64,000 bases of DNA, taken from contig OZ361257.1 in the NCBI GenBank assembly GCA_977018835.1, positions 1,240,001-1,304,000 on the forward strand, written 5' to 3'. The position numbers and the translations under genes are program-made. A model generated the notes under the pieces. The model saw nothing but the letters and a program-made list of their open reading frames with translations, made no database searches and was not told the DNA's origin. Of this stretch, positions 26,039 to 50,728 are shown piece by piece. How positions within the stretch are numbered: position 1 is the stretch's first letter; each line of letters begins with the position of its first letter. Source of the DNA: Minutocellus sp. GHC0000111. Taxonomy: Eukaryota.

Positions 26039-27159
26039 AGACTTGAGGTCGGTCGCTGAAAGTGAGGAGGAGTAGGAAGATGAAGAGGAGGTTTGAATGT
26101 AGGTTATTATTGTGCGTAGTTGAGAGGTTGGAAGATCAGTTGAGGTTGTTGGTTGTCAATGGTAATGAAAAGTGAGCATTGGAGTGATGTGAAATTGTGG
26201 GACGTAGCACAGTACCGTATTCCTCGGCGCGGCTCCAGGCTCTATGTGAACACCAAACCGCAGTACTTCCGGCAGTTTATGTGCGATAGGTAAAATGACT
26301 TTTCACGACGTGAACAATGAGGAAAGCGGTGTCCAAGAGTGGCCGTGCGGTCTCGAGTGGGCATTTCCGCAGTGTCTGCAGAAAAGTTGTCAGCTCATAC
26401 GATGAATGATATGAGGAGAAGGGAAATGGCCTGGGGTTTGAGTCATCAATTTCTGTGGCGGCCAAACGTTATTGACAGAAATGCAGGCAAGATTGGAGGC
26501 CTTTGTGTCAGATTGGGTCTTTCCGGTTTCTGTAGGCCGTTTTTAGAGCCTCCAAGCACTTTTCAATGCCTGAGACATCCCCGAGACAGCGAAGATGTCA
26601 ATACAGATGAAAGTCTCTCTACTAATCGCAAGGCAAATAATATGCAGATGCAGGTCAAAGATTGTGCTTTGCAGGGTCGTGCTCGGCGATGCTCATTTTT
26701 TAGAGCCTCTGAGCAGTCTTTTTGCTCAGCTCGGCACACATGGCTGTAGATCTAATTGCTCGGCGATGTCGGCACAGATAGATTCAAACATGAAGGCCAG
26801 AGATTGTGCTTTGTGGAGCGGTGCCGCGTAATTAGTACTACTTCATGACCGCTCGCCAGCAATCCAAAGCCTGAAAGTCGTCAAAGGGGATACGAAGTTT
26901 GCCTCCCCTCGGCTCGTGCCCTCGCCACGCCATGTCAGACCCCATTGGCGCGCATGCCGAGGAAAATTATGCACTTAGTATTGGTGTCTTGGCATGGCCT
27001 CCTACACGTGGTGTTTGTCCCAACGAGGCGCTAGATCTAGCAAGGAATCATGCACATAGCCAACATTGTAGGACAACGAAGATGTAATTGCATGCGCGTA
27101 TTATGCTAATTCGCAATAGATTTTCCATTATACTGCCGGTACCTATTTCGTCCTAAGTA

Positions 27160-28550: not shown

Positions 28551-28956
28551 ATTTGCTCTACGCCCAGTTGCAATCGGTTGAACACGCCGCCGCCGTCAAT
28601 ACTACATGTACGTAGTTTTCGACCAGCATGAAATGGTCGTTTCGTTCGCCCAAAAAGCAAAAGCAAAATAAAAAGCAAGCGCATGCATTGCGCCAACATC
28701 GACAGCAGACAGTGCAATCGCAAGGGACCATGACATGGAGCACGATTCGGTGAAGGGGCAGCGGCCAGACGGCCGGTTGGCGATGAATGCTGATCGTGAG
28801 ATCGTGAGTGTGATGTGAAACGACAGAGATTTCTATGGCCAATAAATCAAGAGCAAGAGCAAAGGAGAGTACCGGTACACTAGATTCTAAATGTCTCAAA
28901 GATTAAGATCGCCTTCGTGTACATATGTGTACCGATATGTGTGTACATGTACAATC

Positions 28957-30434
28957 TTATCTATTCCTCCTCAGAAGAGCAACGAAGAATCCACCCGTGT
29001 CTTGAGCCTGGGGCAGCAACCGAGAGCACAATTCCAAGCGCATGCTTTCGACGTCATCTTCGTTCACCCACATGCTCCTCTCGGCCTTTTCCATTCCACA
29101 TCTTCATAGGAAGCATAAAATTTCAGCTTGCCAAAAGTCGTCTCCGGTATCATCTTCGCTATCGTCCCCGGCGTTATCATCGGCCTGGCTCTGCTCATAG
29201 GAGGAAATCTTCCAATCGGTGACTCCTGGTTGTCTCTGGAACTTTGGAAGCAGAGCAGAGGGCCATTCCACCAACTCCACAGCGGGACTCTCGTCGGCAT
29301 CATCTTCAGAAGTACCATCACCATCTTTATTCTTGCTATTGAGCCTTCGAAGCGCTGCAGACACAACCGCCTCGTCTTCCACTGGGTTGAGGCTACAGGT
29401 ACTGTAGCAGACAATACCACCCACTTTGATCAGTTCCAATGCCCTGATCAATATCTTGAGCTGCAGTCCATGCAGTGCATTTCCAGTCGCTGGAGTCCAC
29501 ATGGGCAAAATAAACTTATCCTTTCTGATTGTTCCATCTCCAGAACACGGTACGTCGGCAATAATCGCATCAAACAGCTTGCCCGATCTTGGCGAAGGGA
29601 ATTGGCTGGCATCAAAATTGGTGTAGGTGATACGAGAAGTAAGGTCGTCATCCAAACCGGATCGACCAACGGCATCACGGAGAGAATCCAACCGACCGGC
29701 GTGGACGTCGTTGGCGATGACCCGCCCTCGCTTTCCACTTTTGGGATTGGTAGCCGCGGCAATTTCCAACGCCTGCATCGTCTTGCTACCTGGGCTTGCG
29801 CAGAGATCCAGTACTTTGCACCCCGGAATGATGGCATTGAGGGCCGACAGTGCCAGTACCGGTAGCATCGATCCCAATTCCTGTCGAGCGAGTGTGCCAT
29901 TGAGACTACCGTCGACCAGCAATTGCTTGAGTTCTGGTGACGTTCGGGACAGGTTCACCTTGGAAAGATTCGACTGTGCCGTTGCCTGATAGATGCTGCA
30001 ATCTGGATCATATGCAACTGGAGCTACCAGATCTGAATGTTTCTTGGCCAATTGCTTTGATACAACGTCTTGATATGTCGACGAGGCATCGGGATTGCGA
30101 AGGCGGAATGTCAATGGCAGTGGTCGCGACAGGGCATGGATATATGGATCCAGATGCGGATATTTCTTTGATTGAGACCTGTATGCCTGTGCCAGTGGAT
30201 GGGATTCGTCAACTGTAGGAATGTCTGTGGAACTTCCAGCTTTTTGGAGCTGCGGCTCTGATTCTGATGTGCTCGTCTGATGATGATGACCATTCTTCTT
30301 CTTGCGTCGCTTGGCAGCTCTCGACACGCCCTTGCCTCGTTGCTGCCCGCCGCTCTTGGTAGGCGATGCCGAAGCACTAAAATTGCCAACAGCAGCAGCC
30401 TTGTCTGCCACCACACCAATCGGCTGGCTACCAT
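28957..30434 (-). CDS. NOL1/NOP2/Sun-family (NSUN2/Trm4-like) RNA m5C methyltransferase (two frameshifts ~29135 and ~29090; start uncertain)
   Basis: RQELGSMLP, VLDLCASPGSKT, DVPCSGDG, YSTCSLNPVEDEAVV; terminal RLLPQAQDTGGFFVALL lies in a shifted frame. Confidence 0.92.
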
Positions 30435-30505
30435 AATACGATACAAAGAGAGCGTAGCCGGCACCTGACTTGCGATGCCACAGAGCCAGAGCATTCTGAT
30501 CTTGC

Positions 30506-31546
30506 TTGGCAATGCTCTTGCTCGCCGACGACTTGCGTGCATCCGAGAGGGGATTGTTGGTACCACCACCGCCGCTGCTCTTGGAGGTGGAAGACGCTTT
30601 GGTAGTGGCATCGATGGCGCCGTCGCCGTTTCTTTTGCACGACGTGTCGAGAAGATGCCTCGGAAAAGGAACGTCTTCGCAAGCTCAAGAAGCACTGCCG
30701 AGAGAAGTATCCCTGGGCCCTGTGTGTGTTTGGATCTGGTCGTTCGGGGAGTTTGTAACGGGTTCTGCGTACGAGTCTGTCCGAGCTTTGCGAAAGGCCG
30801 CCGCATATCAGCATCCGCGGGCGCTGATCGTTCTTGCCCAGCACTTGCTAGAAGGTATGGGATGTTCCGTCGATGTCGCCGAGGCGCTCTCCTGCTTCCG
30901 ACGATGTGCAGTAGTCGACCCATCCTACGAAGCCACTGCGCAAGAACTCTTGTTCTCGTATGCGGGCGACTCGGTGCAGAACGGTGACATCCGAATTGCG
31001 GTTGACATTTGCTCACAACTTGCAGCGGCTTGCAATGTCAAGGCCCAATACTTTGTCGCCGCCTACGGGATGTTGCTGGATCACGGTGGTGCTCGCGATT
31101 TCATGTATCGCTGGCTGGTCATGGCCAGCATAAACAACAGCGACTTGGCAAAGCTAGGCCCGGCCGAAGTAGCCTTGCGACTTGGCAAGGTGCCTCAAGC
31201 TCGTCTCTTCTTTCGCCGATATCGCCTGCTCGACGGATCGAATGTTATCGAGAGCACGATGGGTACCGTCGATGCGTCCACTTGCGTTGAACTCTTGCGA
31301 CAGACATTTCGAGATGTTAGGCGCAACTGTGGATACTGTGGCATCTCCCTGGATCGAATGACTCGGAAGCTTTGCAAAGGGTGCGAAACGGTAGCATTTT
31401 GTTCTCGTGATTGTCAGAAGATGGATTGGAATGGAAAGGACGGACATAGAAATGACTGCAAGGATGCAATGGCCCTGAGGGCTGAGTGCGTGGGGAGATT
31501 GTGTCCATTTGTTCTTCGAGATAATCTTGTTGTTAATGTTTTATAA
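30506..31546 (+). CDS. SEL1-like repeat plus MYND zinc finger protein
   Basis: LAQHLLEGMGCSVDVAEALSCFRR (SEL1-like); CGYC...CKGC...FCSRDCQKMDW...HRNDC (MYND). Confidence 0.8.
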   Translation: MAMLLLADDLRASERGLLVPPPPLLLEVEDALVVASMAPSPFLLHDVSRRCLGKGTSSQAQEALPREVSLGPVCVWIWSFGEFVTGSAYESVRALRKAAAYQHPRALIVLAQHLLEGMGCSVDVAEALSCFRRCAVVDPSYEATAQELLFSYAGDSVQNGDIRIAVDICSQLAAACNVKAQYFVAAYGMLLDHGGARDFMYRWLVMASINNSDLAKLGPAEVALRLGKVPQARLFFRRYRLLDGSNVIESTMGTVDASTCVELLRQTFRDVRRNCGYCGISLDRMTRKLCKGCETVAFCSRDCQKMDWNGKDGHRNDCKDAMALRAECVGRLCPFVLRDNLVVNVL

Positions 31547-31571
31547 CTGAATCAAACTACGAGATTCTTAA

Positions 31572-33084
31572 TCAATTGCAGCCTTTTCGCGCCGCTGAGA
31601 CATAGTCGTATTGGTGGATCCACGCGTTCGCAGCGAACTTGGTGCCCTTTTCGACGTCCAAGGCTTCGTGTCGGGTCCGTGGGTCCATCCTCATGGGCTC
31701 ATCGTCTCTAACGCTCGGCCACAGCAAGGCACGACCTTTTTTAGGCATGATCGTCAGTGGCCCAAGGTCAGGAAAATTTGTACCTCCGCCAGCGTCGACA
31801 TCGCTTAGGTACAAGAAGAAGGTCAAAATGCGCGGACCGCATTGACGGTCGACCTGGTGCGAAATATAGTCGTGGTGGGCTCGATAGTGCTGTCCATCTT
31901 CATACTTGAGAACCTGGAAGTCCTCGTAATGATATGAAGGGATGTTGGTTACATTGCCTATGCGATCCATGACGCGCTGGGCAATTTCGTCTTCTCTACA
32001 GCCATTCTTGCTGGTGCACCATGCGTTGTGGGAAGTGCGCCGTGTACTCTGAGTCGAATCGAACGATCCATCAAATTTTGCCCCCCCCACATCTTCACTG
32101 CGCTTGTACTCTGCCTTGTGCCCCAAGTTGATGAGATGTTGGCATTCCTCGTCAGTGAGGAACCCATCAAAAGTTACGACCCATGGAGGACCACCATATT
32201 GTTGGTCGCTCGTGTCTGTGGCCTTCTCCGCTTCCTCTGCCGTCCATGGTCTCGAATGCACTGTAACCGTGTAGGGAGGCATGTCAGAATCAACGTCCCT
32301 TTCCTCCACAGAACGATTGCCTGGAGCCGATGCTACAATATTCTCAAACATTTTGTTTAGCCCACCCACCTCAAGTCCAGGCTTCGCATTTGGATCTCTC
32401 GGAGGGCATCGGGTCGCTGGTCGATATGTGTAGATAGGTAAAGATATATGGTGAGTGGGTAAGCAAACATAATCAGCAATGTTACATTTACAGTTCTTCC
32501 TTTGGTCCGCCTTCACCTTCCTGAGACTCACCAAAATCAATCAGATGGCAACTTTGGCAACTGGGCGCGCAATTGCTGGCCATCCAGGCTGCGTTGTTCT
32601 CACACTCCCCGATGGCACTCCAAAAGGCACACTTATCGTGCCGATTGCGGCACTTTTGGATCGTATCCTCCGACATTGTGTGCGTTGGCTTGTCTCGCAG
32701 GACGAAATTGCGCATGTAACTGATGGTCTTTCGAATAACCAGCAACGTGGCCGATGCCTCCGCTCCCTCGGCTTCCTGCGGCTCTCCGTATTGCTTCACC
32801 AGTTCCAATATTTGCTCCCGATCGGCCGACGTTGGTTCCGGCGGTTGAAATGCCTGGCATGCCTTGGCGCAATTCTTTTGCATCCAATTTGCATTCGCCG
32901 TACACTCGCCCTTTTCGGCCCAGAAATCACAGTTCTCGTGCTTGTTCTCCAATGCATTTGCTGCCTCGCAGATCTTTTCGCCGTTTTCAGATACCCGGCA
33001 TTGCTGTTCATCTGCCCCCACATGCCTTTGCTGCTGGGCAAAGATGGAAAGCAGGAGGACGAGAGTCGTCAAGGGGGAGAACAT
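31572..33084 (-). CDS. Secreted ShK-domain prolyl 4-hydroxylase, paralog of 27160-28550 (intron 32417-32531)
   Basis: Signal peptide, two ShK domains, RRTSHNAW, HHDY, FFLYLSDVDAGGGTNF, TRHEAL, KFAANAW. Confidence 0.92.
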
Positions 33085-33521
33085 TCTATTGATTATAGTT
33101 ACGTTGGAATGCCAAGTTGCGGTACCGTGAGGTCGACGATATCGAAGGATCCCATCAAGTGGAAAATAAATTAGGCGGCGATGAACAAAACGGTCATCAA
33201 CATGCGCATCAGACGAACTGCCCTGATGACGGCCAGACCAGCACTTTGAATTTTCACCCAACTTCCAAGTGACGTGGCAAGCCAATGACGTCGGTCGCTG
33301 CTGCTGGCAGCTGCTGCTGCTGCCATCGCCAAGCAATTCGATTCCATTGCATGAATTTTCTCACTTGATGTGATGTATTGGTGGTCATTTGCCCATACCA
33401 TTGCTGGCTAGCGGAGTATTATCTGTCATTACGATCGTAGAAGAGTCCATTGATTGTGTGGTCCTCATTCCCCACTCGCTTCAGCCTTGACACTGAGAAT
33501 TTAATTTCCCAACATCAATCA

Positions 33522-34430
33522 ATGGGAGGAGGTTCTGCCGCCAAGGAGCATCCCTTTGAATACCTGGCCGCAAGCGCCATGGCGGCCTCAATCAACTATC
33601 CACTTTGGCGGGCGTCATGTATAGGCCAGGCGGGGTTTCGGGTGACGGCGTCGGCCGTGCCAGCCGCCATTGGAGGCATCGTTGCTACCGTCCCACCCTC
33701 AATAGCACCGTTCTTCTATGCCTTTGCGCCACCCTACAAGGGCATGACGGCAGTCATTTCCGGCATGACTTGGGCCAGAGCGGCCATCTTTTGGGGCAGT
33801 GATCGGGGCAAGGAGGTGCTCAAGGCGGCGTTTCCGACTGCGCCGTCAAGCTTCCACACGATCCTCCCACCATTGCTCGTTAGCACTGGCGTCCAATGCA
33901 TCAATCAGCCCATCGTGAGGGCCAGTGTAACGTTGCAAAATCCAGAGTCCAACTTGCCCAATACGAGGGAGGCAATAAAGTTTATGTATCGGAACCACGG
34001 CCTGGGTGGGCTATGGCACGGCACATCTGCGGGCATCTTGAAGACCGTGCCAAAATATTGCACAGCAATCATCATAAAGGATTACATGGAATCGGTGCTA
34101 CCGGTGGTCGATCCGACAAGTCCAACCTACAACACTGACGTATTGATCCGATCGGCAGCGAAAAGCATGGCAGCCGGCGTCGCTGGCGCGGCATTGACCA
34201 ATCCATTTGATGTCATCCGCAATGAAATGTTCAAGGAGAGCAAGAGTTTGGTCGACACGGTGAAATCGCTACAGAAGGAATTGGGTTGGAGATTCATGCT
34301 GCGTGGTATTGGCAAGAATATGGTTGCCGTTGCCATCCCCATCGCATGTACCATCTTTTTCACGGATGCATTGATCCAATTGAAATTGAAGAAAAAGCGG
34401 TCATCACTGGAAGGAGCGCAAAAGCAATGA
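33522..34430 (+). CDS. Mitochondrial carrier (SLC25) family protein
   Basis: Three-repeat layout with YPLWRA, QPIVRA, NPFDVIRNEM and GLWHG motifs. Confidence 0.85.
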   Translation: MGGGSAAKEHPFEYLAASAMAASINYPLWRASCIGQAGFRVTASAVPAAIGGIVATVPPSIAPFFYAFAPPYKGMTAVISGMTWARAAIFWGSDRGKEVLKAAFPTAPSSFHTILPPLLVSTGVQCINQPIVRASVTLQNPESNLPNTREAIKFMYRNHGLGGLWHGTSAGILKTVPKYCTAIIIKDYMESVLPVVDPTSPTYNTDVLIRSAAKSMAAGVAGAALTNPFDVIRNEMFKESKSLVDTVKSLQKELGWRFMLRGIGKNMVAVAIPIACTIFFTDALIQLKLKKKRSSLEGAQKQ

Positions 34431-34479
34431 CGCTGAAGAAGAAGCGGTCATCACTGGAAGGAGCGCAAGAGCAATGACG
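34387..34479 (+). repeat. 47 bp tandem duplication of the carrier gene 3' end including its stop codon
   Basis: TGAAGAARAAGCGGTCATCACTGGAAGGAGCGCAARAGCAATGACG occurs twice. Confidence 0.9.
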
Positions 34480-35653: not shown

Positions 35654-37876
35654 ATGTCGGGAATCCCGCCTCCCCCTCCCCCACCGCCGCCTCCTCCGCC
35701 ATACGAGAATAGCGGCCGTGACCGAAGCACAAATGCGGCCACGCACGGCAGCTCTCGGACCATGCACGCGTCCGTTGACGTCGTCGCCCAAACCCCGCCG
35801 CAGCCACATAACAGCCTTGCCGGCGGCGCACCTGGCGGCAGTTCGAACCATCAGCATGTGCATCCAACCTCGGCGCCGACGCCGTATTCCAGCAACGTGA
35901 CGGCGGTGCCACCGCCGCTACCACCGGGACCACGGACCAGTTCCGGCACGGCCGCCCGGGCCCACGCATACGCGTCAAGTCGGATGGCCTCGTCGAGTTT
36001 TGGGGATTTTCACGTCAGTCATTTGAACGGCGGCGCCGGGAGCTCTGCTGCGGCGGTGTATTATTCCGGCAATTCGTCGGCCACAACTGCCGACCACGTG
36101 TCGTCGGCTGCTCCAATGTCGAGCGTCGGAATACCGTCGCAGCAGCGATCGCTAAGCACGGACGATGCCGACATTGCCGCTGGGCTCTACGTGGGCGGTG
36201 GCAGAGGACGGCACGTCGCTGCATCGACGTCGTCCTCGAAGCATCAGCAACACCGCAGCAGCACCGGCGCTCGTCGCCGGGCGCCGCGGCAGAATGCTCT
36301 GGATGCCTTCCGGGATTCCGAGGCGGACTTTTTGAAGCTCAGCAGCGTCGGCAGCGTGGCGGGCAGTACTGGCACGGCGGGATACATGAGCGGGGCCGAG
36401 AGCAGCATCGGGACCATACTGACCCCACCCACCAGTGGCAACATGGTCTTGAACTTGCCCACCTTGGACAGCAAGGGCGAGGGCGGTGGGAAGGGCGCGG
36501 ATATCGACCACCGGGAGCAGATACTTGTCCTTGGCATTGATATTTCGCACCTGTCTCGGAAGAAGCAGTTCATCTATTGTGCTGGCGGAGTGTTTTTCTT
36601 TTCGTTGCTCTATGGGTTCCTCCAGGAACTCATTAGCGTGACATTGTGCTGTCGACAGCTGGGACTCTTCTTAGCAGTGGCGCAATTTTCGGGATATACC
36701 TTCTGGAGCTATCTATTGCGAGAGTATGTCAATGAAAAACAGGCCCGGCACCGAAGAAGAAGCATGAGGATGAATGGCGATGGTGGTGGCAATCATGCAT
36801 TGGAGTTGGATGGCGGTGCACATGGAGAATCGCCATCGGCTATATGTTGGCGCAACGGGTCCAGTATAGTTCGATCTATCTTCAGAAGAGGTGGCAAATC
36901 ACCAAGTGCTGGGAAGAAGGGACCGCAGGGCAAGGGAACTATTCCCGTTCCTATCGCAACTTATCTCGGCCTTTCCATCTTACGTGCAATTGATCTCGGT
37001 GCTACCAATCTGGCAATGCAATATGTCAATTACCCCGCCAAGACCCTCATGAAGTCTGCCAGGGTCGTCTTCACTATGCTCTTCGGCGTTATCGTAGCCA
37101 AGCGTCGATATCAGCTCGGTGACTACGCCGTCGTAATGATCATGGTCGCTGGTCTTGCCCTCTTTATGCATGCCGATGCCAACTCGAGCGCCGTCTTTCA
37201 GCCCTTTGGCATCATGCTCCTCGTCCTTTCGCTCAGCTGCGATGGTGCTATATCCAACGTGTCCGAGAATTTAATGAACCAGTTTGGTGTCGGCCAAGAC
37301 GAATTCATCTTCCGATTGTACAGTATCGCTACTCTTGCCATTTTAGCCGCGGCAACATTCAAGGGTGACATGACAGAGGGAGCTAGATTCCTTTTCCTTC
37401 CTGGAACTTACGATGAGATCAACAATGGCGAAGAGCCGACGTGGTCAGTGGCTAGAAAAATATTTGTCGTGGTTCTTTTTTCTACCATGGGATTTTTCGG
37501 TTCTAGCTGTTCCGCTGCCATTACCAAGCACTTTGGTGCCCTTACCATGTCTATTACCTCTACCGCAAGAAAGGCAACAACACTTTTCCTTTCGTTTGCT
37601 TTCTTCAATAACGTCTGTACCCTCGAGCATATTGGCGGTATTGTTCTCTTCATCACAGCACTCATCATGAAGAGTCTCAGAGCGAGTCGAAAGGGACGTC
37701 ATCGTAGTCATTCCAGGAAAAAGCGACTGCGAAGATCACCAGAAAGAACACCACTTGTGAACTCCACGAGTAGCATTGAAATTGGAAGTGGAGGTGCCGA
37801 TGCTGCTGCACTTCATCAGCGAAGGACTGGCAACAGCCCTATGCGCCATCCCAATCGTAGCTCCAATGTTGTATAA
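35654..37876 (+). CDS. UAA-family (SLC35B/PAPST-like) nucleotide-sugar or PAPS transporter
   Basis: YGFLQE, MQYVNYPAKTLMKSARV, HFGALTMSITSTARKATTLFLSF; about 10 TM helices after a disordered N-terminus. Confidence 0.9.
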   Translation: MSGIPPPPPPPPPPPPYENSGRDRSTNAATHGSSRTMHASVDVVAQTPPQPHNSLAGGAPGGSSNHQHVHPTSAPTPYSSNVTAVPPPLPPGPRTSSGTAARAHAYASSRMASSSFGDFHVSHLNGGAGSSAAAVYYSGNSSATTADHVSSAAPMSSVGIPSQQRSLSTDDADIAAGLYVGGGRGRHVAASTSSSKHQQHRSSTGARRRAPRQNALDAFRDSEADFLKLSSVGSVAGSTGTAGYMSGAESSIGTILTPPTSGNMVLNLPTLDSKGEGGGKGADIDHREQILVLGIDISHLSRKKQFIYCAGGVFFFSLLYGFLQELISVTLCCRQLGLFLAVAQFSGYTFWSYLLREYVNEKQARHRRRSMRMNGDGGGNHALELDGGAHGESPSAICWRNGSSIVRSIFRRGGKSPSAGKKGPQGKGTIPVPIATYLGLSILRAIDLGATNLAMQYVNYPAKTLMKSARVVFTMLFGVIVAKRRYQLGDYAVVMIMVAGLALFMHADANSSAVFQPFGIMLLVLSLSCDGAISNVSENLMNQFGVGQDEFIFRLYSIATLAILAAATFKGDMTEGARFLFLPGTYDEINNGEEPTWSVARKIFVVVLFSTMGFFGSSCSAAITKHFGALTMSITSTARKATTLFLSFAFFNNVCTLEHIGGIVLFITALIMKSLRASRKGRHRSHSRKKRLRRSPERTPLVNSTSSIEIGSGGADAAALHQRRTGNSPMRHPNRSSNVV

Positions 37877-38022
37877 TAGTATAATGCTTATATAAAGTAA
37901 AAGGATTTTGCGCACATGTAAAGTTGATATATTGGCCAATTACCGGTACCGGCGCTGGTACCGGTAGATAGCAGCCAGCCAGTCCTTGGCTTTTCAATTC
38001 TTGCTTTGCTATGCTCGCTCGG

Positions 38023-40645
38023 CACAGCCCCATCTCGTCTTGTTTCGCCGGTCGGATGAAGCGTTTTTCGGCAGAAGACGAACACTTCACGAAGAAACCC
38101 ACCAAAACCCAATCTCGTTCGTCACCCATTCTTTGACCGTCCAACTCCATGGTGGTCCGTCGGCGTTGCGCCGGCGTATAACTATATTTTCGTACCAAAC
38201 ACGCATTCATCATCATGTTTGGATGTAGTTGAAGCTTACTGTGTCCTCAGATTGGCCTCCGCTGCGTATCAACGCCACGAACCATCGGCCTACTTTTCCT
38301 CCATCTGTCGGCCGTTCGTTTCTCTGGGGTGGTACCATTGCTCCGTCTTTGTGCTCGTCGTGCTCCCGTTGTGATCCCCAGACCCTCTGGTGCTTTCCCA
38401 CGTTGTTGTTGATGACAAACTGCCGGGATTGCGCCGCACCCCCCGCATGACCGACTCTCGCTGATCCCGACCGATCGCATCCCCACTCGACCTCCCGGAA
38501 TTCCGACAATAATTTTGCGCCCGAGAGGAGACAGATAGTATTGGGATATGTTTATGCAACAATCAACCCGACAAAGGGACTTTTTGGTCTGGGAGATAAA
38601 TGGGTGAGTTAAGAAGGACGTGATGTGTTTGTTTGGGTGTACTATTTACTTTTTTGCTCAATCGCGATACTGTTTGTAAAAGTTGGATTATGCAATTCAT
38701 TTGTTGTTGTGTAGTAGTAGTGTAATTTCATTTTCTAATTTTATACATGCCCTGCTCCCATCTCTACATCCTCATCTCCATCGGTGGCCATCATGATCAC
38801 TTGTTGGCGCTTGTCATCAGTTTCTGCTTTAACAGCTTCGGTCCTTGTCCTTTTCCTTGTTCTTGCCACCCGAGAGTTTCGCTCCCGCCTCTCCTCGACC
38901 TTTGGATTGGATGCCCTCTCCTCAGCCTTGAACTGCGCCGTCGGTTGGGCCTCATGTCCCTTGACGCCCTGAGTCCGACGATCTTCCTTAACGCCCTCTT
39001 GGTGGGCTCGCTCTACAAACGATTCGTCGAGCCAACAGATGCCGCCCCATCCATTCTTCACTAGCCAAATGTGTTGGTCCAAGATGTGATCTTCGAGTAA
39101 GTGCCACTTGGGCGTCATGCTAATGCCGATTGCCCGTGCTTGCTTGAGGGCACTTGCAATCAATGCTTCAAGCTCTCTCACAGCCTTCTTTGCCTCATCA
39201 TCCCATTTCATGTGCACCATTTCAGAAACCTGGAACACATTGCGTCAAGAGTGTGGAGCAAATTAGAGCAAGCTTTGCAGAGCTCTTTGATGTCGTCATC
39301 CGTCATGCCATCTTCCTCGTGATTGTGCTCTAGGAGAGTTCCTTAAGTGGAGGTGTTGTGGTGGATGAACTCTGTTGTCCTTGGTTTCTTCTTGTTGTTG
39401 CCATCAGAAATATTAATGGATAAAGCTCTCCAGCATTCTGCCAGCACTGCCCTCATTTTACCTGAGTCGGCCGCCTCAATGCCGGCCTTTTTCAGGAAAT
39501 GGAAGTGAGGGGCATCGTCATCCTCGGCATCATCGACAGCTCCCATCTCTGGCTCGCCATCACCGTGCTTCTGACGATTGATTCTTCTCAAAGTGCTGCT
39601 GCATGCATGCTTCATGTGCAGCGTCCTCTCTTGCAACATCAGCTTCGTCCTCATAACAGGGCACACAGTCCTCGTCTTCGTCGTCATCGTCCTCACTGAT
39701 CTCGCCGGCCTCCGTCGTGGTCAGGGTGCCCACCGTCCCAACATCGTCGTCATTGTCCCACCCATCGTCCTGGCCATTGCACACCCACCAGGGAACTTCT
39801 GGGCCTCGAGCAACATCTGCCTGTTGATTTCGTAGTCCATCGCCGCACATCCCACTGCCATGTGTGGTGCGACCGACTTGAGGAATGCATTGCATGCCTT
39901 CGTCAAATTGAGCCGCGGCGGCGGCATTTCGAGGCGAAATTGTTGCTCGACCGTGACCATGTCGTCATGTCGAAAGCCAGCCATCCATCCATCATCATGG
40001 AGAGCGTCGGCTGCACAAGGATTGATAGAACCGAGGCGAACAAACATGCTCTTTTTGCATGGGGTTCGCTGAACGTCGTCGGCAAGGCAGTGTCTTGATA
40101 CCATTTCATCCCATCCATTCTGGTTGTCTGTCCTCACAAATGGCACATCGCAGTCTAGTCTTCGTGTTTCTTCTTCTTCAAACCCAAGGTGCCCGCAGCG
40201 TGCATGACGGCGCCGTACATGATGGGACTGCATCCCAACACATTCATCAAGGAGTCGTTGTTGTTGCCGATGAAATTGTAGTAATGAAGTTCCTTTCTGC
40301 GAAGACGGACGAGTAGTTCAGCCAGGGCGTCCTGCACCGCAACACTCTGTCTGCGGTGTTGACCGCGGGATTGCGGCCGTTATTTTTTTTGCTCATGGAG
40401 AGTTGTGGATCGAGACCAACGGGAATATCACCAGGATGTCGGGAGTACCTGGTTGGTCTCGTGCCGTAATTCTCCCACACCAGCGCGAGATATCGCCTTC
40501 GTTCTGCACGTAGCGGCGGCAATTTGAATTTTTGCCGCCATGGTGGCTCGCGTTGGGCGCGCCGGTCGGTTGCTTCGCGCGCCGGCCGGCCACCGAAAGT
40601 GCGACCAAAAGTATGCGAGTCATCCGGCTGGCAGATGGTGCTGTG
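38023..40645 (-). mobile_element. Internally deleted CAC-ended DNA transposon of the RAG1/Transib/Chapaev type with asymmetric ends
   Basis: Left end CACAGCCCCATCT and right end (reverse strand) CACAGCACCATCT match at 12 of 13; both are followed by CGGATGA; GG on both flanks; encloses a transposase remnant. Confidence 0.75.
38741..40396 (-). pseudogene. Decayed RAG1/Transib/Chapaev-like transposase (N- and C-terminal parts; core apparently deleted near 39345)
   Basis: TPKWHLLEDH...GGICWLDESFVERAHQ aligns with the H-x4-H zinc ligands and catalytic Glu of RAG1 (HKTLAH...GSIGAWASEGNESGNK) and with Chapaev ERFHQ; many stops and frameshifts. Confidence 0.7.
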
Positions 40646-43600
40646 GGAGGCGGCCACAGCAAAACACGTGCGTAGAAACGTGCGGTCTGTCGTAGAACCT
40701 GCTACTAAATCATTTTCGGTAGTGCCACGTCATTTCGAACCGACCAAACCTGCCCATCTCTTTTCACAAAAGTAACGCGCAGCTCTAATCTCATACCCCA
40801 GACGACCACCAAGATGACATGCAACCACCATGCCCGCCTCAGTATCCCTTCTCTACACATGTGCCTTGGCTAGTGAGTCGTCATTCTGAGCCTCTCGCTC
40901 CTGAAACTGACGAAAATCGACTTTCGGCGCATGTCACCGACCGACCTCGACCTCCACGACAGCTACAATCGCAAAGAAAAGTAACGACGACGTCAAGCTG
41001 ATGAGAGAATGCCGACATTTGACGACTTAAGATCGCCCTGATGGTGTTGTCGAGAGGCGGTGAGGCAGTGGTGTTGAGTTCGTACGCACAAGAGTCGTGA
41101 AACGCCGGCACCCTCCAAAAATTCTGCAATCAGGTTTCGTCTCAAAACCGGCTCTCAATGTAAATGTGACCTTATTGCTCGAAAAAATCCGCTAAGAGTG
41201 TCTATGCAACTTTTGACATTTCGCTACCATGACTCTACTGGGGCGATATACGTGCTTCTTCTGCGGTTTGGGTATCACCAAGCGGATCAATTCGTTGAGG
41301 CTTTGTGGATTTGCAGCAAGTTTTCCGGTGATGGGACAAGCGCCAACATCAGATGAGGTACAATAGTTCTTGAAATTGAACCCTGGGACACTGATTCTCG
41401 TTCAATCCGGCCAAGGTATGTAATAGAGAATGGAAGTGTATGTGTTGATTGTTGAGTTTGTGTTTGGAACCCATTGCATTCTCACACAATGACAAGTAAA
41501 ACCGAAACTTCCAGATTCTCCTCAACTTCTCCACCGCAATATCATAATTGCCACAGGTATACCATTCTTCGCCAAATCGATGATGTCGAGGCTTCCATTT
41601 GGACGGCATGTACCCACGATGAGGTCCGATGGCAATCTTTTGGCAGTTGGGTCGATAGTTCGGCCAAACTATGTCATGTTGTCATTTTTAGAGGGTAACT
41701 TTTATTGTGCTGGGAGGTCAAAAATACCAAGATGACGATTGTTTGGGTCCATGCGCGTCCATTCAACACACCAGTACCTTATTCCCGCCCGGATATGATA
41801 TAAGGTGGCTCATTGATGGAAAGTTTCGCGGGGTTGCTTGAAAGATTGACGATTTCATGAGCATCTGAATGTTTCGTGGAGGTCGACGCCTGATGTCGTG
41901 GGGTGCTGATCCCAAATTCCAATGTTGATACTGAACTACAAGGAATCACAACTACTCGATAAGAAGGGCATTAAACAACGGTCCTTGATATACCCGAGCG
42001 GCCTCCATGCTAATGAAAAGTCCTTTGTGCTGGTAAGGAAAGTAATGGAGGCAAATGGATGTGAAAATCTGACGATTTTATTGTAAACCTCGGCGGTCGT
42101 CGACCTCCACGAAGAGTCAGGGCCTATAACTCAACAAATAATCACGAACTCAATAACACTCTCATAGTCCCACCTCAGGGTGTTTATCTAGTGCGACTCT
42201 ATGGGTAGTAACTTTGGTAGAATGGCTTACTTGGCTATTTATAGATGTTGCACTATCTGAGAGTAAGGTCGGGGCCGTCGGCAGCCCCGTTGCAGCTACT
42301 GCTGATGATTGTGGCTACTAAGCTTCACAGAGTGGACAAGTATACATCATCTATGTAAAAATAACTTCTTATATGTATTTATAATGGAACGAAAACAAAT
42401 AGAATACTCTTGGTTGCATAAGCATGCCGATCTATCACCATCCTCTCTCAGCAAGGTTGAACTCCTGCAATTGGGCTGAGGCCCCATAAAAAATTGAATG
42501 CAGTCAATAAATTGATGACCATAACTCGCAGCAACCCAATGAAACTCATCAAAAGTCAAAAGATACATACAATAGAAAGGTATCTGCATGGAAGTGTTCA
42601 CGAGTTTGCTTGCACGGGGCGAATAGTATCAATTCCATGTCTGCAGTTCGAGGCGCCTTCGCTTCCAGCCCGTTTCATCCAGAAATCCCACATGCACCGA
42701 GAAGACATGATACCTGCCCCCGTTCTTCACCACCAGGCAATTTCCAACATCCTCACATATGAAGGTGTACGACAGAACCAATGAATCCAGTGAAAATCCA
42801 TCTACATCCATGTTGTCGGCACCGACAGGTCCACTTTGTGGTCAGATTTCTGTCTCGAGCATGCTCATTCAAAGTCGATTGAACGCCTATTGACGCAAGA
42901 TGGGCCACCTGTAAGGAAGTTCGGAAGGACCCATCGACCCACATACCCTTCAATGCCACGGCCCTAACCTCAAGCTACTTGGATTGGTCGTCACTCGATC
43001 ACATGTGCTGCAATTGTCACCGCAAAACATCTGGTCGGGCTGCCGTCAATTCTCGGGTTGGTCTGTAAATTTTTTTAGCTTGCGCTTCTCTTTCGCCACA
43101 GACATGGTGGCTACTGTCTCAAATTCAAGGGGGGTCTGGAATGTGGCCGAGGATCTTAAGTTTGAATTTGAGACTGTAGTGAGCGGGTCGGTGTTGTGAT
43201 ACTGGAGGCTCATGTCGGGTAACACAATCGAATCAAAACTTGTTCTTGCGTTTTTGCTTGCTTTGTGCGCGATGTTGTCGGACAGATGAAGGTGCGCGCT
43301 GAAAATGTCTTTTACCTGCTGCACATGCTTGGGTGTTTGCACTTTATCTCACTAGTAAAATTCCTTACATTTTGTGTCAGATTAATTTTTCTACGTAGGA
43401 ATCAGTACATTCCTACCACAGACGAAGGCTGTTCTGCTGCGGGCGGCGGCGGCGGGAGGCTACGAGTTGGTACGTACGTATATAATACGTACGTACGAGA
43501 TGAAGACTGTTGGGCCTGCTGCCCGCTGCATGGTGGGAAAAAGTGGTTGGTCGGTGTTGACATTTCGTTTTCTAGAACAGTAACACCGGCATCGTTATTT

Positions 43601-43879
43601 GATTAATGTGAAATACAGTTAGCTTTTACGCCTGCTCCCATTGCCTCGGGTTGACCTGAATGGTCATCTCCCCCTCTGTCATAATTCCAGACCCCACAAT
43701 TGTCTTGCGCACGCCATGCGCCAGCCAACGAGAGGATTCTTTTTCAACATCTGCGCCTCCTGAATCGCCTTCGGACTCAGCAGTTCGTCACCCTTGCTCA
43801 CAGCCACGACGCACTGGATGAAAATGGAATACGGAAATGAGTTGATGAGAGAACACATATTCCGCATGTTCCTAATAAA

Positions 43880-45230
43880 ACCATAAAAACAAACATTCAC
43901 TTGTGCGGTCAGTGTCGCATGTCTGCCTGCCTCAACTTGCCGTTGCACACGTGCCATCGGCCCCGCAGTCTCCCAATCAAAAAATTCTTGTTCAGTGTCA
44001 AATTCATTGATCTTGGTGACGCCGAGGCAGTCCCAGAGACTGGTGGCACTGTGGTTGTTGACAGCGATGTCTTTCGTGACGATCTAGCCGCGCCTTGGGT
44101 GTGGCACTTGGGCAGCTCTTTGGAGTCACTGACGACAGTGACGAGGATGGAGAAAGAATCCATCAGCTGGAATTTGTGCCTCGCTCAATATTTCGTTTGT
44201 TGGACAACCTGGCCTCCAGTGGCCAAGGAGCGATTTTTGCCGGCACACATTCCTCGGTAAAAGAAGTTGTGAGAGATGTCGACTACATGCTGGATGAGCC
44301 CGAGACTTGTCTCTTTGATCCCCATTTGAGTGAACAAGCAATGTCTATATTAGATGAGGAGGACAACGATGGTGAGGTGCAAAAAATGAACAACAATGCC
44401 GACAACGGTAACATGAGTGAGACTGACAGTGTGAGTGCTCTGGACGACCATGATGCGGCGTCTGTTGTTGAAGAATCGTCGGCAAAATCAGCCGCTTCGG
44501 TGACAACTGGTGCTGAGAGATCCGTCTCGTCATGCGCCAGTTTGTGTGGTGCAGGAAGAGAGAAGGATATCTCGCAGGGAGATGCGGAAGGCCTTTTGGT
44601 GGCCGGCTGCTCTCTGCATTAACTTTTGTAGGAAGCGCGGGAAGTGGCAATGCTGCGTCCACAGGCCTTTTGGTTCTTGAACATGCAACAAAGTTGGTCC
44701 GTTCTCTCCAGGAATCCATGCGTGGAGATGGAGATAATGATGCGTGCGCAATTGAACAGGACGTGGTTGAAAACCTGGCCGCAGAAGGACGATATAATTT
44801 TGTTTGGTTGACCACCAAGTCGGACGCACTAGCAAAGTCGCTGGCTGGACTGGCTGATGCCATCGAACCTGGTGGCTGGTTCCTGGCAACATTTTTTGGA
44901 AAAGCTGATGATGACGATGCGACCACTTCGAGCGCTTCCGTAACCGCATCAAATGCCGTGATGTCGAAATTCAGAAGCTTTGTCGGCATGGATGGTGTCC
45001 CACGAAATGATGGACGAGTTGCAGCGTTGCTGGATCCTACAGGCATGTTTGATTGTTCAACTTGTAAATCCAAGAGCGTCGGAGACATCAACGTTTGCGT
45101 GGTGCAAAGAGGCAGATAAAAGATGGTTCACCGGCACCCATCGCCTATCGGCACGGTCTCTAGCTAGATGTCTTTAAAGAACTAACTTATCTAGTCTGCC
45201 AATTTGACATGTGTTTCGCAGATTAGCGGC
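43880..45230 (+). pseudogene. Fragmented coding-like region of unknown family
   Basis: Overlapping 119, 175 and 195 aa ORFs with protein-like composition in successive frames; no recognisable motif. Confidence 0.35.
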
Positions 45231-45378: not shown

Positions 45379-45637
45379 CACAGCACCATCTGCCAGCCGG
45401 ATGACTCGCATACTTTTGGTCGCACTTTTGGTGGCCGGCCGGCGCGCGAAGCAACCGACCGGCGCGCCCAACGCGAGCCACCATGGCGGCAAAAATTCAA
45501 ATTGCCGCCGCTACGTGCAGAACGAAGGCGACATCTCGCGCTGGTGTGGGAGAATTACGGCACGAGACCAACCAGGTACTCCCGACATCCTGGTGATATT
45601 CCCGTTGGTCTCGATCCACAACTCTCCATGAGCAAAA
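45379..45637 (+). repeat. 259 bp inverted copy of 40387-40645 (12-type transposon end through the ATG)
   Basis: Only two mismatches seen by eye; both copies run from CACAGCA to ATGAGCAAAA. Confidence 0.95.
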
Positions 45638-46735
45638 TGGCAAAGACGATGCTGTGAGCACGAGTGCCAGTGGTGCTCTTGAAACACCCCCAAGCGCACC
45701 CCCAAAGCTGAAGGAGGTGGCGCTAGTGCTGGGAAAGTTGCTGCTGCTCTTGCTCCTCCTGCTGCTGTTGCCAGTCAGAGCACTGTTGCCATCAGTTCAC
45801 CTTCAAAGTCACCATCAAAACAGCTCAACCTGGACATTCTTGACATCAAGGTGAGACCAAGGACGTTGTTGTCCAGAAGCACAACAGTGCCAAGGAGGCC
45901 CGTGGTGGTGGAGCCAGTGGCTACAAGCTCACACAGTGAACCTCTCTGGTGTGGTCACAACCTCAGGCAGAGCCAAAGTTGTGGGTGTCGTCAACAACCT
46001 CGTAGACAGGCGCAATGCCCCTTGCTGGATTAATTCTTAAGCCTGATGTTCTCATTGACACTCTTCAAGCTTTGACCGAGAACCCCCATCTTGCGTGCGT
46101 CTCTGACCTTGCAAAGAGTGCCAAAGAGTTAGGTTCCTTTGCGCGACATTCCTTGCGGTGCTGATGTTGGGAAGCTGTCCTGCTCCAAGACTGGGTCAGC
46201 TTTTCCAATCACAACCACCATGTTTTCCCTGGACGTGTCAGAGAAGATTCGCCCTCCTGCCGAGGAGGCTGTTTGCCTGGTGCAAATGTTGCACGAAGTT
46301 GTGACATCCAAAGTGTTCAAGGAGGCCTGCACTGACATGATGGTGAACGGCGGTGGGCGGTGGGCCAAGCTTGGCTCTCAGATTGAGCAGGACAACCACT
46401 CCTGTTGGGTCATTTTCAAGGGGTGCAACCTGGAGGTTGTTGATCCTTCACCCCTGACTGAACACAGTTTTGATGGACAAAGACATCAAGGAAGCCATGT
46501 CCTTCTTGACTGACGGCGTTCCCCCTGGACGCTGGGCTGCCGATGCTTCGTTGCGGCAGTTTTGATGGACAAAGACATCAAGGAAGCCATGTCCTTCTTG
46601 ACTGACGGCGTTCCCCCTGGACGCTGGGCTGCCGATGCTTCGTTGCGGAAGATTGCTTACAAGGATGGGAGCACTCCAGCTGGCACGTTTGCGGAGGAGT
46701 GAGGAAGTGAAACTTTGTTCTCAGGGTGGCTGCTT
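45628..46735 (+). pseudogene. Decayed cargo ORF behind the second transposon end
   Basis: Starts at the repeat-supplied ATG; broken frames such as 46139-46513; TpA- and CpG-poor; not visibly similar to the transposase. Confidence 0.4.
46465..46648 (+). repeat. 92 bp tandem duplication, apparently exact
   Basis: CAGTTTTGATGGACAAAG...CTTCGTTGCGG at 46465 and 46557. Confidence 0.95.
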
Positions 46736-47853
46736 TCTGGTGGATTAAAATACTTTGCATTGTCTTAGGTAAGGGCTTGATCACACTTCAACCACAAAAA
46801 AAACACCAAACACACAAACACAAACACAAACCACTGTAAAACAAATGAAAAACGTTAAGCGCAAAAGTCATGAAGGAGGTCAAACACTCAGTCACAAATT
46901 CAGTCAGACCCCATTTTGCAATCAAAAAATCAAAAACTGTAATCAAACTACATAGTGATCAAAAAAGCCCCTCTTGTTTTTGCACCTGTTTGCTCCTCAC
47001 TGTGTGCTTCAACTTCTGCTAGTGCACCTCTCACTCATTTTTGTGTTCTTCACCTCCAGTTTTGGCACACATGGCATCTCTGTCAGTGATGCCAGACAGG
47101 AGAAGTCTGTTCTTCCCCCCCCTTTCAGGCCTCAAAAAGCCATTGCTGTGTCAACTCCCTGTGCTCGTGCACTCGCCTAGTGTTGACGAGGTGTCAATGG
47201 CTTGCAGCTCAACCAGCGTGTTCCAGCAACACAGGAGGCTCTTCAAGATGATGAGAAGCTGCATTGTTTCCTTAAATGTTGCCGAGATTGGGAGCACAGT
47301 GGAGCTGAGCAACACAGGGAACACTGTGTTGCAAAGCCCTCAGTTTTTGTGACAGCCCCATCTTGGTGCTTGGTGCTTGAAGTCAGCCCTCTTGGTGTGC
47401 CATCAAAGGGGTTTAGCTACTTTTTCATGGACAAGAAGGTAAAGGAGAAGATGAGCTTTGCTCTTTTGCACCAGACGCTAAAGCGTGGGCTGGCAAGGGC
47501 TTCCCTCAGGATGAAGCTGATGCCAGCAGCGCACAGCCCATGCCTGGTGAGGCTGTCTGCCAGCTTGGTTGCCGGCCCCAAAGAAGTTTGGTCAATCAAG
47601 GTCCGGTCACCCTTTAAATTGCTATTTGAGGTCAAGGTGAAAAGGACCTGCAGTGGCGGAACTTGTGGCTTCAAGTTGTGCTTGCCACTGAGAAGCCAGC
47701 AGGACGGGGCACAGTGGACATTGACTCTCTTCATGATGGGAACCCATGCCTTACGGTTTCAGAGGATTTGTAGAGGGCACACCAATAACCCCTAAAAAAG
47801 GTCATTCTTGCACCCATTTCTCATTTCCCACCACGTGTTTTGAGTTCCAGCTT

Positions 47854-48569
47854 TAGGTGAGCCGCTCGACCCAAAAACTGGACATTCGTCTTTCCGTCGT
47901 CCGTGTTTCCAACGCGGCGAAGTACGGGAAAAGTCGCAATTTCCTGCCGGACCAACTTTTCCCCCTGAAATATGGCAAAAAGACTTGATCGAGCCGGCCT
48001 GCCTCGCTTACGTCCCCATTCTAGACACATTCAAGGTTGGGGACATCGAAGGTCCGGCTCGAAAATTCCGCACACAGGCTGAGCTATCGAGGGGGAAAAA
48101 TCACGCACAAAAAACGATGACGACGCACGAAAATTTGCTCTCATTGGCGGCCGATTCGGGGGCGGATACGAACAAAAACCACAACAATCAACCATACAAA
48201 CATTTTCATACATATCTTGGGCGCGTATCTCTGCAATTCTGGGTGGATTGGGCGGCTGTGGCTCTCACGGTATCACTTCTCATCCGCGGCCCTTTTTCGC
48301 GTACTCGAACACAGGTTGATTGTTTTGATTTATATTTTCTCATACAATAGCATGCCAATCAAGCTGAAACTTTCGCATGCGTAGCGCAATGGTATCGGCC
48401 AGCCTCGGGAATGCCCATATCTTACCTTGCAAATGTGTAGCGGCCAGGAGCGGGGGTCACCATGATGAGCTTCGTTCGGGAGAAAAAATGGACGGACGTC
48501 AGTCTTTCCGTCGTCCGACAACGCGAGCGAAGTTAGCAAAATCTCCAATGTCCTGAAGTGCCTCACCTA
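47854..48569. mobile_element. Candidate non-autonomous element
   Basis: TTTAGGTGAG at the left and CTCACCTAAA at the right; 16 bp direct repeat GTCTTTCCGTCGTCCG near both ends (47888, 48502). Confidence 0.35.
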
Positions 48570-49554
48570 AAATGGGACCAACTCAATGTGTAGATCTACA
48601 TGTAGTGGTTTTAGAAGGCAGTTTCAACACTGTGGCACTTCGTGCTAGTTTTCTTTGGGAAACACTACGGCACTTCGTGCTGCTATGTTCGCGTGTCTTT
48701 ACGCGCGGGGAGCACTTTGGTTGTGTGGAATGGAAGCGATGCGCTGGACGTTTTGATGTGCTGGTTGGCCGTTTGACGTGCTGGTTGTTGGAAGACATGC
48801 TGCTGCTGCGGCGGCGGCGCACCGATCCGATTGCAGCACTCTTGAATAGTTACAATTAGTTTAAAAAATTTAAAGATTCACATAGAGGAGTGAGTGGTGT
48901 AGCAGCATGTCAAAAAAATGAATGACATGCTGAAAATGTTGACACGCTGACGGTGATGAATTGTGCAAGATTCGTCATGCATTCAGATTCACCTGTCATT
49001 GCCTCTCGGAAGAGACGCCAATTATCATGGGCATTGTAAGTTCTGCACTGTGTCGAGGGGAAGGGGTACAAGTTTCGGCTCTATCGATGTCTCCATCTAA
49101 TGAATGGAGACGATGACGCTGAGAACTGGAATGAGTTAAACATTTCGTTGAGTGACGACGAGTTGGAAAGGTGTTTTCCTGACACGGGCATAGTCGACAT
49201 GGAGGATGAAGTGGAATGGGATGAAGTGTTTGATGAATTGAGTGAGCAGCACTTGATGCTCGACTCGAGCGTTGAATCCTCGAGAAGTGATGCCAGTCAG
49301 TCTTCTCGACGGCATCGAGTTGGCAGAGAGTGAATCGGCTGAGGATTTTTCAGTCGGCATTATCGAGGTGTTAGAGGCAGTCGAAGCTGCTGAGATCATT
49401 GCCGATCTCTCAACGTCGAGGGAAGCATTTTCCGCATTTGACGATGGAACACGTTGTGCGGAATGCAATCGCGAATTCGACTCGGAGGGGGTTTAGTTTG
49501 GAAGATCCACTACAATAATTGCGCGTCGTGTTCGGTCTCCATTTGTCCCGCCTG

Positions 49555-50075
49555 TTATTTGGTGGTTCGCGGTTGATGAGGTTTGATGTGCTGCCACTGC
49601 CGCTGTGGTGTGATTGCTGCTGCGGCTTGACATGCTGGACGTTTTTAGACACATGCTGGTCTGTGTTGATGTGCTGCTGGCGGTTGGTTTGATCAGCTGC
49701 CGCTATGGATGAGAGGTTTGATGTGCTGCGGGGGTGGTCTGATGTGCTGCGGCTTGACATGCTGGACGTTTTGACATGCTGCCGCGGTTGATGAGGTTTG
49801 ATGTGCTGCCGCTGCCGCTGTGGTTTGATTAATGCTGCGGCTTGACATGCTGGATGTTTTTAGACATGCTGGTCCATGCTTGGCGTTCGTTTTGATGTGC
49901 TGGTCGATTTCTTGATGTTTGATGACATGCGGGTAGAATTGATTTGCTGCGGTTCGATACGCTGAACGTTTTGACATGCTGCGGGTGGTGAGTATGGTTT
50001 GATGTGCCGCTGCGGTTTGATTGCTGCTGCGGCTTGACATGCTGGTTGTTTTGACATGCTGCTGCGGATTTGATG
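49555..50075. repeat. Degenerate minisatellite
   Basis: Recurring GCTGCGGCTTGACATGCTGG, TTTTGACATGCT and GGTTTGATGTGCTG blocks; related motifs at ~48740-48820. Confidence 0.8.
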
Positions 50076-50728
50076 ATGCGCGTGACTCATTGAATCTGAA
50101 GCACTCCCTTTTAAAATACAAAAAGTCAAATCCAAACTTTCCCCACGACGGGGAGTACCTGCTTCCACTTGTGAGATCTTTGTTCCGAATGCTCGCTTGC
50201 TTTCACTTCACTTGTGAGATCTTTGTTCCGAATGCTGGCTTGCTTTCTAAAATCTGAAACACGATCTGCCTGCCACAGCCGTTCAAGTTGGCATCGCCTG
50301 TGTTTTGCAGATGTTTCTACGATGTAACACGAGAGAGAGCAAGCAGCGCCAAAATCGACGGAAATAAGCGTGGAACATGTGTTTCTTCGTCGACCTAGTT
50401 TATTGCAACAAAAAAAAACTCACACCCTCTTATTGCTAGATGGGCCGCGCCCACCCTCCAAGCGGTGACGACTGTCTGTCTTAGAGGGCACCCGGGCCCA
50501 CGTAGCCACGTCGCATGTGAATGTCGCAAGTGACGTTGCGCCGTTGCGCCTTTCACTCACAACCCACTCGCCACATCATCAAAACTGGCGGATGCCATCT
50601 GCTCTCAACCTTCAATGGCCTGACTTTGCCGCCGATTGCCCATTCTGACTCCTTCGTCCTTCTTCTTCATCCCAAAACCACATTGGAGATGCTGGTCCTA
50701 CTAGCCGCTACGCAGCACCTCGTGGACC

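Follow-up and report, generated by a model that had tools for sequence, protein, structure and literature searches.

Directional loss of TpA steps preceding a pyrimidine, with small tandem duplications, in repeats of a diatom-like genome

The question raised by this locus is why the repeat DNA at 45661-47760 of the window (the whole stretch of 64,000 nucleotides that was analysed) is almost devoid of TpA dinucleotides. A preliminary description had proposed a distinct process that converts TA to TG/CA in repeats, such as adenine deamination in a TAY context. We examined this proposal by base composition and by comparing the repeats with their sister copies at the DNA and protein levels.

Setting and composition of the TpA-poor repeats

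With a GC content of 52% and dense intact genes (Sec3, dynamin-like, phytochelatin synthase), the window is eukaryotic; its overall observed/expected ratios (o/e) are 0.59 for TA and 0.97 for CG. The closest named proteins by identity to its ARL2 protein are those of Thalassiosira exigua (79%), Stephanocyclus meneghinianus (79%) and Chaetoceros tenuissimus (77%), and we therefore term the host diatom-like; two longer plant entries, although near the top of the E-value ranking, have identities of just 64-65%. Elsewhere in the window, 27110-33360 holds a cluster of genes that, judging from their motifs, presumably resemble prolyl 4-hydroxylases with ShK-type cysteine motifs, and a near-perfect 46-bp tandem duplication lies at the 3′ end of a gene (34387-34479).

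A 13-kb repeat cluster occupies the space between the end of the upstream gene (~37900) and the beginning of the next one (~50700), and its features are collected in Table 1. Element 1 belongs to a family of 195 clustered proteins of up to ~1100 aa, the copies being mostly internally deleted, for which 609 representatives were found at E up to 0.001 (proteins P0001, P0015 and P0018). Six residues (D339, D438, C455, C458, H806 and E827) are invariant in 28 sequences, and these candidate D/D/E and zinc-binding motifs would be equivalent to those of RAG1. Atlas neighbours of the element carry RAG1_RNase_H at 0.87-0.90, and its terminal inverted repeats match at 12/13 bases from CACAGC at 38023 and 40645. 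With the Transib/RAG1-like DDE transposons, element 1 has in common the putative DDE residues, a CxxC, two His and short inverted ends that start with CAC. On the side of differences, Pfam gave no RAG1 or Transib match for element 1, nor anything above cut-off for 13 remnant frames, PDB sequence searches yielded no RAG1 or Transib match but nothing or coiled-coil noise, and no 5-bp target-site duplication flanks the 38023-40645 copy, whose flanks differ. This duplication is reported as a feature of the group that varies within it (10.64898/2026.08.26.747230). On these sequence features we treat element 1 as RAG1/Transib-like, its membership being putative.

The flagged stretch belongs to element 2, whose left end is cut by the 259-bp inverted copy of the element 1 end; loose contig ends also lie at 45638. 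Its proteins form a cluster of 24 members, and in run X1 its contigs are ~11-14 times as deep as those of the gene at 37500; this ratio, like the other depths below, is approximate and gives no copy number. Intact relatives of its gene A have 515-531 aa and are 71% identical, and 4/6 family Tyr codons of gene A are Cys or His in the window. The metagenome scan found a single locus, L001 (L001:2755-5104), with the gene order kept, in which the second frame also lies downstream of gene A (47% identity over 78 aa). The element 2 genes had no match in Pfam, PHROGs or viral contigs and no usable match in the Atlas. The flagged element 2, which had been called transposon DNA, is a repeat without a family match. 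It is present in RNA runs as contigs. Downstream, the depth jumps again at ~47745, where a further high-copy repeat (47745-48560) contains similar 68-bp stretches at 47880 and 48494, and 49568-50250 is a degenerate tandem array, rich in TG and with units of 52-84 bp, that has a 39-bp direct repeat and a TA o/e of 0.29.

Table 1. Features of the repeat cluster, in window coordinates (depth relative to the gene)
Feature	Position	Strand	Remarks
Element 1, internally deleted high-copy DNA-transposon-like copy	38023-40645	-	both ends start CACAGC
Element 1 gene remnant	40396-38744	-	
High-depth repeat	40646-42900		host-like TA o/e 0.66; depth 16-60x gene
Low-depth TA-poor block	43650-45040		TA o/e 0.27; depth 1.3-1.7x gene
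Inverted 259-bp copy of element 1 right end	45379-45637	+	abuts element 2 at truncation
Element 2, 5′-truncated two-gene repeat copy	45638-47744	+	TA o/e 0.20, RTAY o/e 0.03, CG o/e 0.36
Gene A remnant	45638-46702	+	frameshifted by small insertions
Second reading-frame remnant	46971-47744	+	tblastx with locus L001
Private 92-bp tandem duplication, 100% identical	46465-46648	+	skipped by all four runs
TA-poor blocks	38744-40400, 43650-45040, 45638-47744, 48900-50100		TA o/e 0.20-0.29
Private TA to TG/CA, A>G on + strand	46024, 46182, 46329, 47082	+	
Private TA to TG/CA, A>G on - strand	45880, 46684, 47697	-	
Ten private 1-4 bp insertions, element 2	45684, 45853, 45865, 45930, 45992, 46029, 46127, 46796, 46977, 47325		
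Further private 4-bp duplication	near 46455		
Private 1-bp deletion	near 47654		

Recounting bore out the composition reported in the preliminary description. There are exactly 7 TA in 45661-46740 (o/e 0.12) and none in 46132-46657, although this TA-free run is lengthened by the 92-bp tandem duplication; the whole of 45661-47760 holds 26 TA (o/e 0.21), and its CpG is scarce as described (o/e 0.36). The surviving TAs are indeed often CTAG, TTAA or TTAG, 13/26 being of the form YTAR (these three and CTAA), and Tyr is absent from the three open reading frame remnants named there (46139, 47417 and 38741; 124, 105 and 165 aa). The 259-bp arms differ, as stated, at one TA/TG and one CG/CA. Two points were corrected: the frame at 47417 lies on the strand opposite to the one conserved in a relative, and the arms both represent one and the same end of element 1, not the two ends of the flagged element. 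In 569 overlapping GC-matched host windows (1080 bp, GC 0.50-0.58) the minimum TA count was 18 and the median 34, and 16 host ORFs had TA o/e values of 0.31-0.67. At the host rate, the probability of 526 bp without TA is 1e-8, or 4e-7 with the duplicated part removed. The flagged DNA lies far below all of these GC-matched host windows; the family consensus proved TA-poor as well, yet a directional excess is present (see below).

Compared with the remainder of the window, the most depleted trinucleotide of the flagged stretch is TAT/ATA (0.08), ahead of TAC/GTA (0.25), TAG/CTA (0.49) and TAA/TTA (0.84), and gains are seen for CAC/GTG (1.72) and ACA/TGT (1.66). Each TA step presents one A on each strand, with a pyrimidine following both As in RTAY and neither in YTAR. 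Elements 2 and 1 had RTAY o/e values of 0.03 and 0.13, respectively, compared with 0.87-0.89 in host DNA, while the YTAR o/e was 0.39-0.41 in the elements (0.41 in element 2) and 0.31-0.37 in host DNA; in counts, RTAY:YTAR was 1:13 in element 2 vs 622:233 in the host (p 6e-7). Within the window, the RTAY o/e ranged over 0.03-0.29 in the four TA-poor blocks and 0.50-1.14 in the 16 host ORFs. The ordinary low TpA of host genes shows the reverse context pattern, with YTAR low and RTAY high. Rather than TpA as a whole, TAY is the target, and TAR is largely spared.

Direction and context of the changes

At the DNA level, comparison was made with assembled contigs of four runs (at most four samples from two studies; runs X15-X23, with small word shares, were left out). 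Against the family majority in these runs, the window copy of element 2 carries 13 private substitutions, including 8 transitions, with 7/8 being TA to TG/CA and the remaining one AAT>AGT (46674); none is at CpG. Cover is thin beyond 47130, site 47697 being seen in one contig of one run. Changes were found at 7/58 TA bases vs 1/918 other A/T bases, an enrichment of ~110-fold (p 2e-8), and at 0/43 CpG in this copy, few CpG changes being found in element 1. All 7/7 private TA changes are transitions, six in TAY (five of them TAC) and one in TAG; counted by strand-sites, 6/19 TAY and 1/39 TAR were changed (Fisher p 0.004). For the whole cluster, the 40 best-supported difference rows out of 2177, which are not a random sample, comprise 26 transitions, 13 of them at TA, and when the TA transitions listed there are combined with those of element 2, 18/20 are TAY (p 0.005). 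The outgroup gives the same direction: 8/14 aligned TA of L001 read TG/CA in the window, with 0/4 in reverse. A minor class outside TpA, AAT>AGT, is seen at private sites 46674 and 38800 and is possibly a secondary target of the same mutator. The idea that TACG is protected came from two columns and was dropped when site 43905 contradicted it.

At the protein level, 75 of the 195 element-1 cluster members and 15 of the 24 element-2 members were compared. Excluding two very short proteins (P0012 and P0048) left 73 element-1 copies among those listed, which were polarised on the shared residues of an outgroup family 72-73% identical. A Tyr codon yields Cys by TAY>TGY and His by TAY>CAY. Tyr was replaced in 238/352 copy-residues, by Cys in 119, His in 117 and Ser in 2, and Ile in 206/687, nearly always by Val, Thr or Met; Asn was replaced in 62/520, and every other residue in <4%. 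These copy-residue counts are not independent events, given the common ancestry of the copies. Nevertheless, 14/20 Tyr columns of element 1 contain both Cys and His, which a single inherited change cannot give, and each such column therefore records at least two independent events. Among the 39 element-1 columns in which three or more copies carry a minor residue, classed by hand, 26 are direct TA transitions, 6 would be TA if the preceding base is T, and 7 are other, 3 of which fit AAT>AGT; Asn to Ser occurs at columns 72, 144, 181 and 246. In the 15 element-2 copies, Tyr was changed in 7/62 cases (5 Cys, 2 His).

Taken together, the direction of change, the near-purity of transitions, the involvement of both strands, the preference for TAY over TAR, the sparing of genes and the recurrence in individual copies of two unrelated families are shown.

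Age, targeting and accompanying duplications

The TA o/e of the element 2 family majority is 0.24 vs 0.20 in the window copy, and in the intact relative at L001, from another metagenome, gene A has a TA o/e of 0.34 and a CG o/e of 0.63, with 0.58 and 1.39 in the flank. Since the majority state is nearly as TA-poor, most of the loss predates the insertion of the window copy, and part of its deficit is inherited. The element 2 family has therefore long been under TA-loss pressure, with further loss in each new copy. The proposed directional TA to TG/CA process with TAY preference is upheld in the sister copies, with the qualification that the loss is mostly older than this copy. The claim of accompanying CpG loss holds for the element 2 family but not for the recent changes, 0 of 13 substitutions being at CpG.

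As to what is targeted, 5 of the 9 listed differences in 43747-43930, within the low-depth block, are TA lost in the window, and the high-depth repeat at 40646-42900 keeps a host-like TA content (Table 1); the latter has many relatives at 80-85% identity. With the low-depth block changed and the high-depth repeat largely spared, duplication alone does not appear to be the trigger, on depths that are approximate. “Repeat-targeted” describes the locus in that TA loss affects repeats and spares genes, but apparently not in the sense of being triggered by copy number. Element 1 has a CG o/e of 0.83 and an interior TA o/e of 0.28, and its termini (38023-38743 and 40400-40645) keep both TA (o/e 0.64) and CpG (1.20), which could reflect selection on the ends or the boundary of a targeting mark.

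Small insertions accompany the TA loss. Perfect tandem duplications make up 8/10 private insertions in element 2 and 3/5 in element 1, and in the flagged copy indels outnumber non-TA substitutions by ~2:1. Distinct in-frame insertions and deletions numbered 32 and 8 among 64 copies of element 1, and 11 and 0 among 15 of element 2, which makes 43 insertions vs 8 deletions for the pooled sister proteins (p 7e-7). For these indel counts P0009, one junction artefact (“LL”), columns without clean flanks and eight long-type element-1 copies were also excluded, the last being counted apart with 1 insertion and 3 deletions. In Phaeodactylum, indels are reported at only ~3% of the substitution rate (1.58e-11 vs 4.77e-10; PMC6604790). 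Per copy, TA load and insertion load showed no correlation (rho -0.002, n 59). The 1-4 bp duplications likely come from end-joining of staggered breaks, with which their sizes agree, and footprints of transposase visits are another possible source. Duplications described in yeast from trapped Top2 and end-joining are alike in being of 1-4 bp, in unique sequence and biased to insertion, and unlike those here, which are confined to repeats of a natural genome and occur alongside TA loss (10.1101/2020.05.03.075358).

Candidate mechanism, rival explanations and significance

Enzymatic deamination of adenine in DNA fits best: the changes are practically all transitions, they fall in one fixed trinucleotide, and they affect both strands of an element that resembles a DNA transposon. 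We propose, with a probability of roughly 0.6, that a host adenine deaminase acts on silenced repeat DNA, with TAY as its target, as a genome defence. The candidate enzyme would convert adenine to hypoxanthine, to be read as G at replication, so that repeat DNA changes from A:T to G:C at TA steps with C or T next on both strands. Its substrate would be chromosomal DNA, since element 1 is DNA-transposon-like and both strands are affected, and it would be guided not by copy number but by the state of the chromatin, which is presumed to be silenced and probably marked with 5mC. Past decay of 5mC is the simplest explanation of the CpG deficit. The putative staggered breaks behind the duplications might stem from repair of deaminated adenines. 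A fuller scheme, in which a diatom editor of double-stranded DNA adenines with the TAY rule is steered to silenced selfish DNA, and the edited bases are excised from opposite strands of the TA palindrome, leaving staggered breaks that heal into 1-4 bp duplications, so that one pathway both recodes and frameshifts transposons, is speculative and we consider it unlikely as a whole.

A single process could also be sought in the repair of patches of methylated repeat DNA by an error-prone, polymerase-eta-like enzyme, giving A>G at WA together with duplications by slippage or end-filling. Polymerase eta has WA hotspots and prefers A>G (PMC4042646), and with TA the main target and AAT the minor one, an AATT o/e of 0.40 in element 2 vs 1.05-1.31 in host DNA, and abundant insertions, the locus offers it several points of agreement. 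Yet wild-type somatic hypermutation, in the cited Table 1, has 9.1 A/T transversions to 15.5 transitions (PMC4042646), whereas transition products account for 236/238 changed Tyr and 7/7 private TA changes here, and there is no matching G:C load, with CpG changed at 0/43; we regard this reading as doubtful. More doubtful still is a modified adenine (6mA or another mark) at repeat TA sites that decays passively or miscodes to G, much like the change of 5mC to T. Such a mark would produce only transitions, on both strands and restricted to marked DNA. The majority state of element 2 has a low ApT o/e of 0.54, and TAT/ATA is the most depleted trinucleotide; but 5/7 private changes are at TAC, which is not ApT, and eukaryotic 6mA is reported at ApT in transcribed genes, not enriched in transposons, seemingly weakly mutagenic and absent from Phaeodactylum (10.1101/2024.10.28.620566).

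Assembly or sequencing errors confined to repeats could in principle mimic such a pattern, above all the small insertions, since the private alleles of element 2 are mostly absent from the compared runs, the sister proteins may share the assembly of the window, and repeats are harder to polish. For the insertions, error is unlikely because gene and single-copy pieces match with 0-1 gaps (37500-38023 or 38049 in three runs with 0 gaps; 42719-43139 and 42971-43606 with 1-2 substitutions; one gene or single-copy piece with 1 gap), and because the 3-bp insertions that sister copies carry at 39743 and 39989 are found in contigs from two studies. Host genes retain uninterrupted ORFs of 700-970 aa, most of the insertions are of 2-4 bp rather than homopolymer slips, and errors would neither favour TAY nor restore the Tyr of the outgroup, all of which makes this explanation very improbable. 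A purely inherited TA deficit, in which the element families simply have this composition or codon bias and no process is active today, agrees with the TA-poor family majority and the low value of the L001 relative, but it leaves unexplained the ~110-fold enrichment of private changes at TA and the occurrence of Cys and His from the same Tyr codon in 14/20 columns where outgroups retain Tyr. As the sole explanation it is refuted by the private TA enrichment and the Tyr changes of sister copies, and we give it next to no weight.

The TpA loss also has a counterpart. In Bigelowiella natans, integrated viruses undergo TpA to TpG/CpA hypermutation, measured de novo at a rate raised ~1000-fold and active in only some lines; TpA-poor ORFs are enriched for transposon domains, an affected NCLDV region is single-copy, and an ADAT2-type deaminase (ADAT2/3) is a proposed candidate, as stated in the preprint (Mettrop et al., bioRxiv 10.64898/2026.01.13.699255). 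The two systems share A:T>G:C change at TpA, near-pure transitions on both strands, foreign or selfish targets that include single-copy DNA, and long-term TpA depletion with gain of CpA and TpG. B. natans is a chlorarachniophyte with NCLDV and virophage targets and evidence from mutation accumulation, while the present host is a diatom-like stramenopile with a DNA transposon and an unclassified repeat, and the evidence is comparative, with a relative enrichment of ~110-fold. The main text of that preprint reports neither a 3′ context nor a small-duplication signature, and its Table S2 and supplements may bear on both.

The preliminary description had argued that 5mC deamination accounts for CpG loss but not for TpA loss and that fungal RIP runs the opposite way, and both arguments hold, with 0/43 recent changes at CpG and the high CG o/e of element 1 in spite of its strong TA loss. 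Fungal RIP changes C to T at CpA, creates TpA and needs sequence duplication. It is alike in that transitions at a specific dinucleotide pile up until repeats are ruined, whereas genes are left alone; the direction is opposite, TpA being destroyed here, and, as far as depth (no copy number) can tell, here a low-depth block is changed and a high-depth repeat little affected. The CpG decay described for DNMT5-methylated diatom transposons (PMC9998398) can account for the CpG deficit of element 2 (0.36) but not for the TA loss, and no ongoing CG>TG/CA excess is seen here.

In the literature searched, which left most subscription journals outside its scope, no report of TpA hypermutation in diatoms or other stramenopiles was found. 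The process seen here is real: it is a directional, context-specific mutation of a kind described only recently, now seen in another lineage, where its target rule (TAY) is sharper and micro-duplications accompany it. A GC-biased, adenine-directed counterpart of RIP had been measured in one alga only, where the enzyme is a candidate, and its diatom-like occurrence extends the process to a second SAR branch. Since diatoms have CRISPR-tractable model species, the enzyme question becomes testable, and the TAY rule is a fingerprint by which candidate deaminases can be ranked; a natural adenine editor of chromosomal DNA, if true, would matter for base-editing tools. For the genome itself, the signature distorts transposon dating that assumes uniform substitution, and annotation is distorted by spurious ORFs, such as the antisense frame at 47417, because TA loss removes stop codons as well as Tyr. 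The insertion-biased 1-4 bp duplications constitute a second inactivating force on the repeats.
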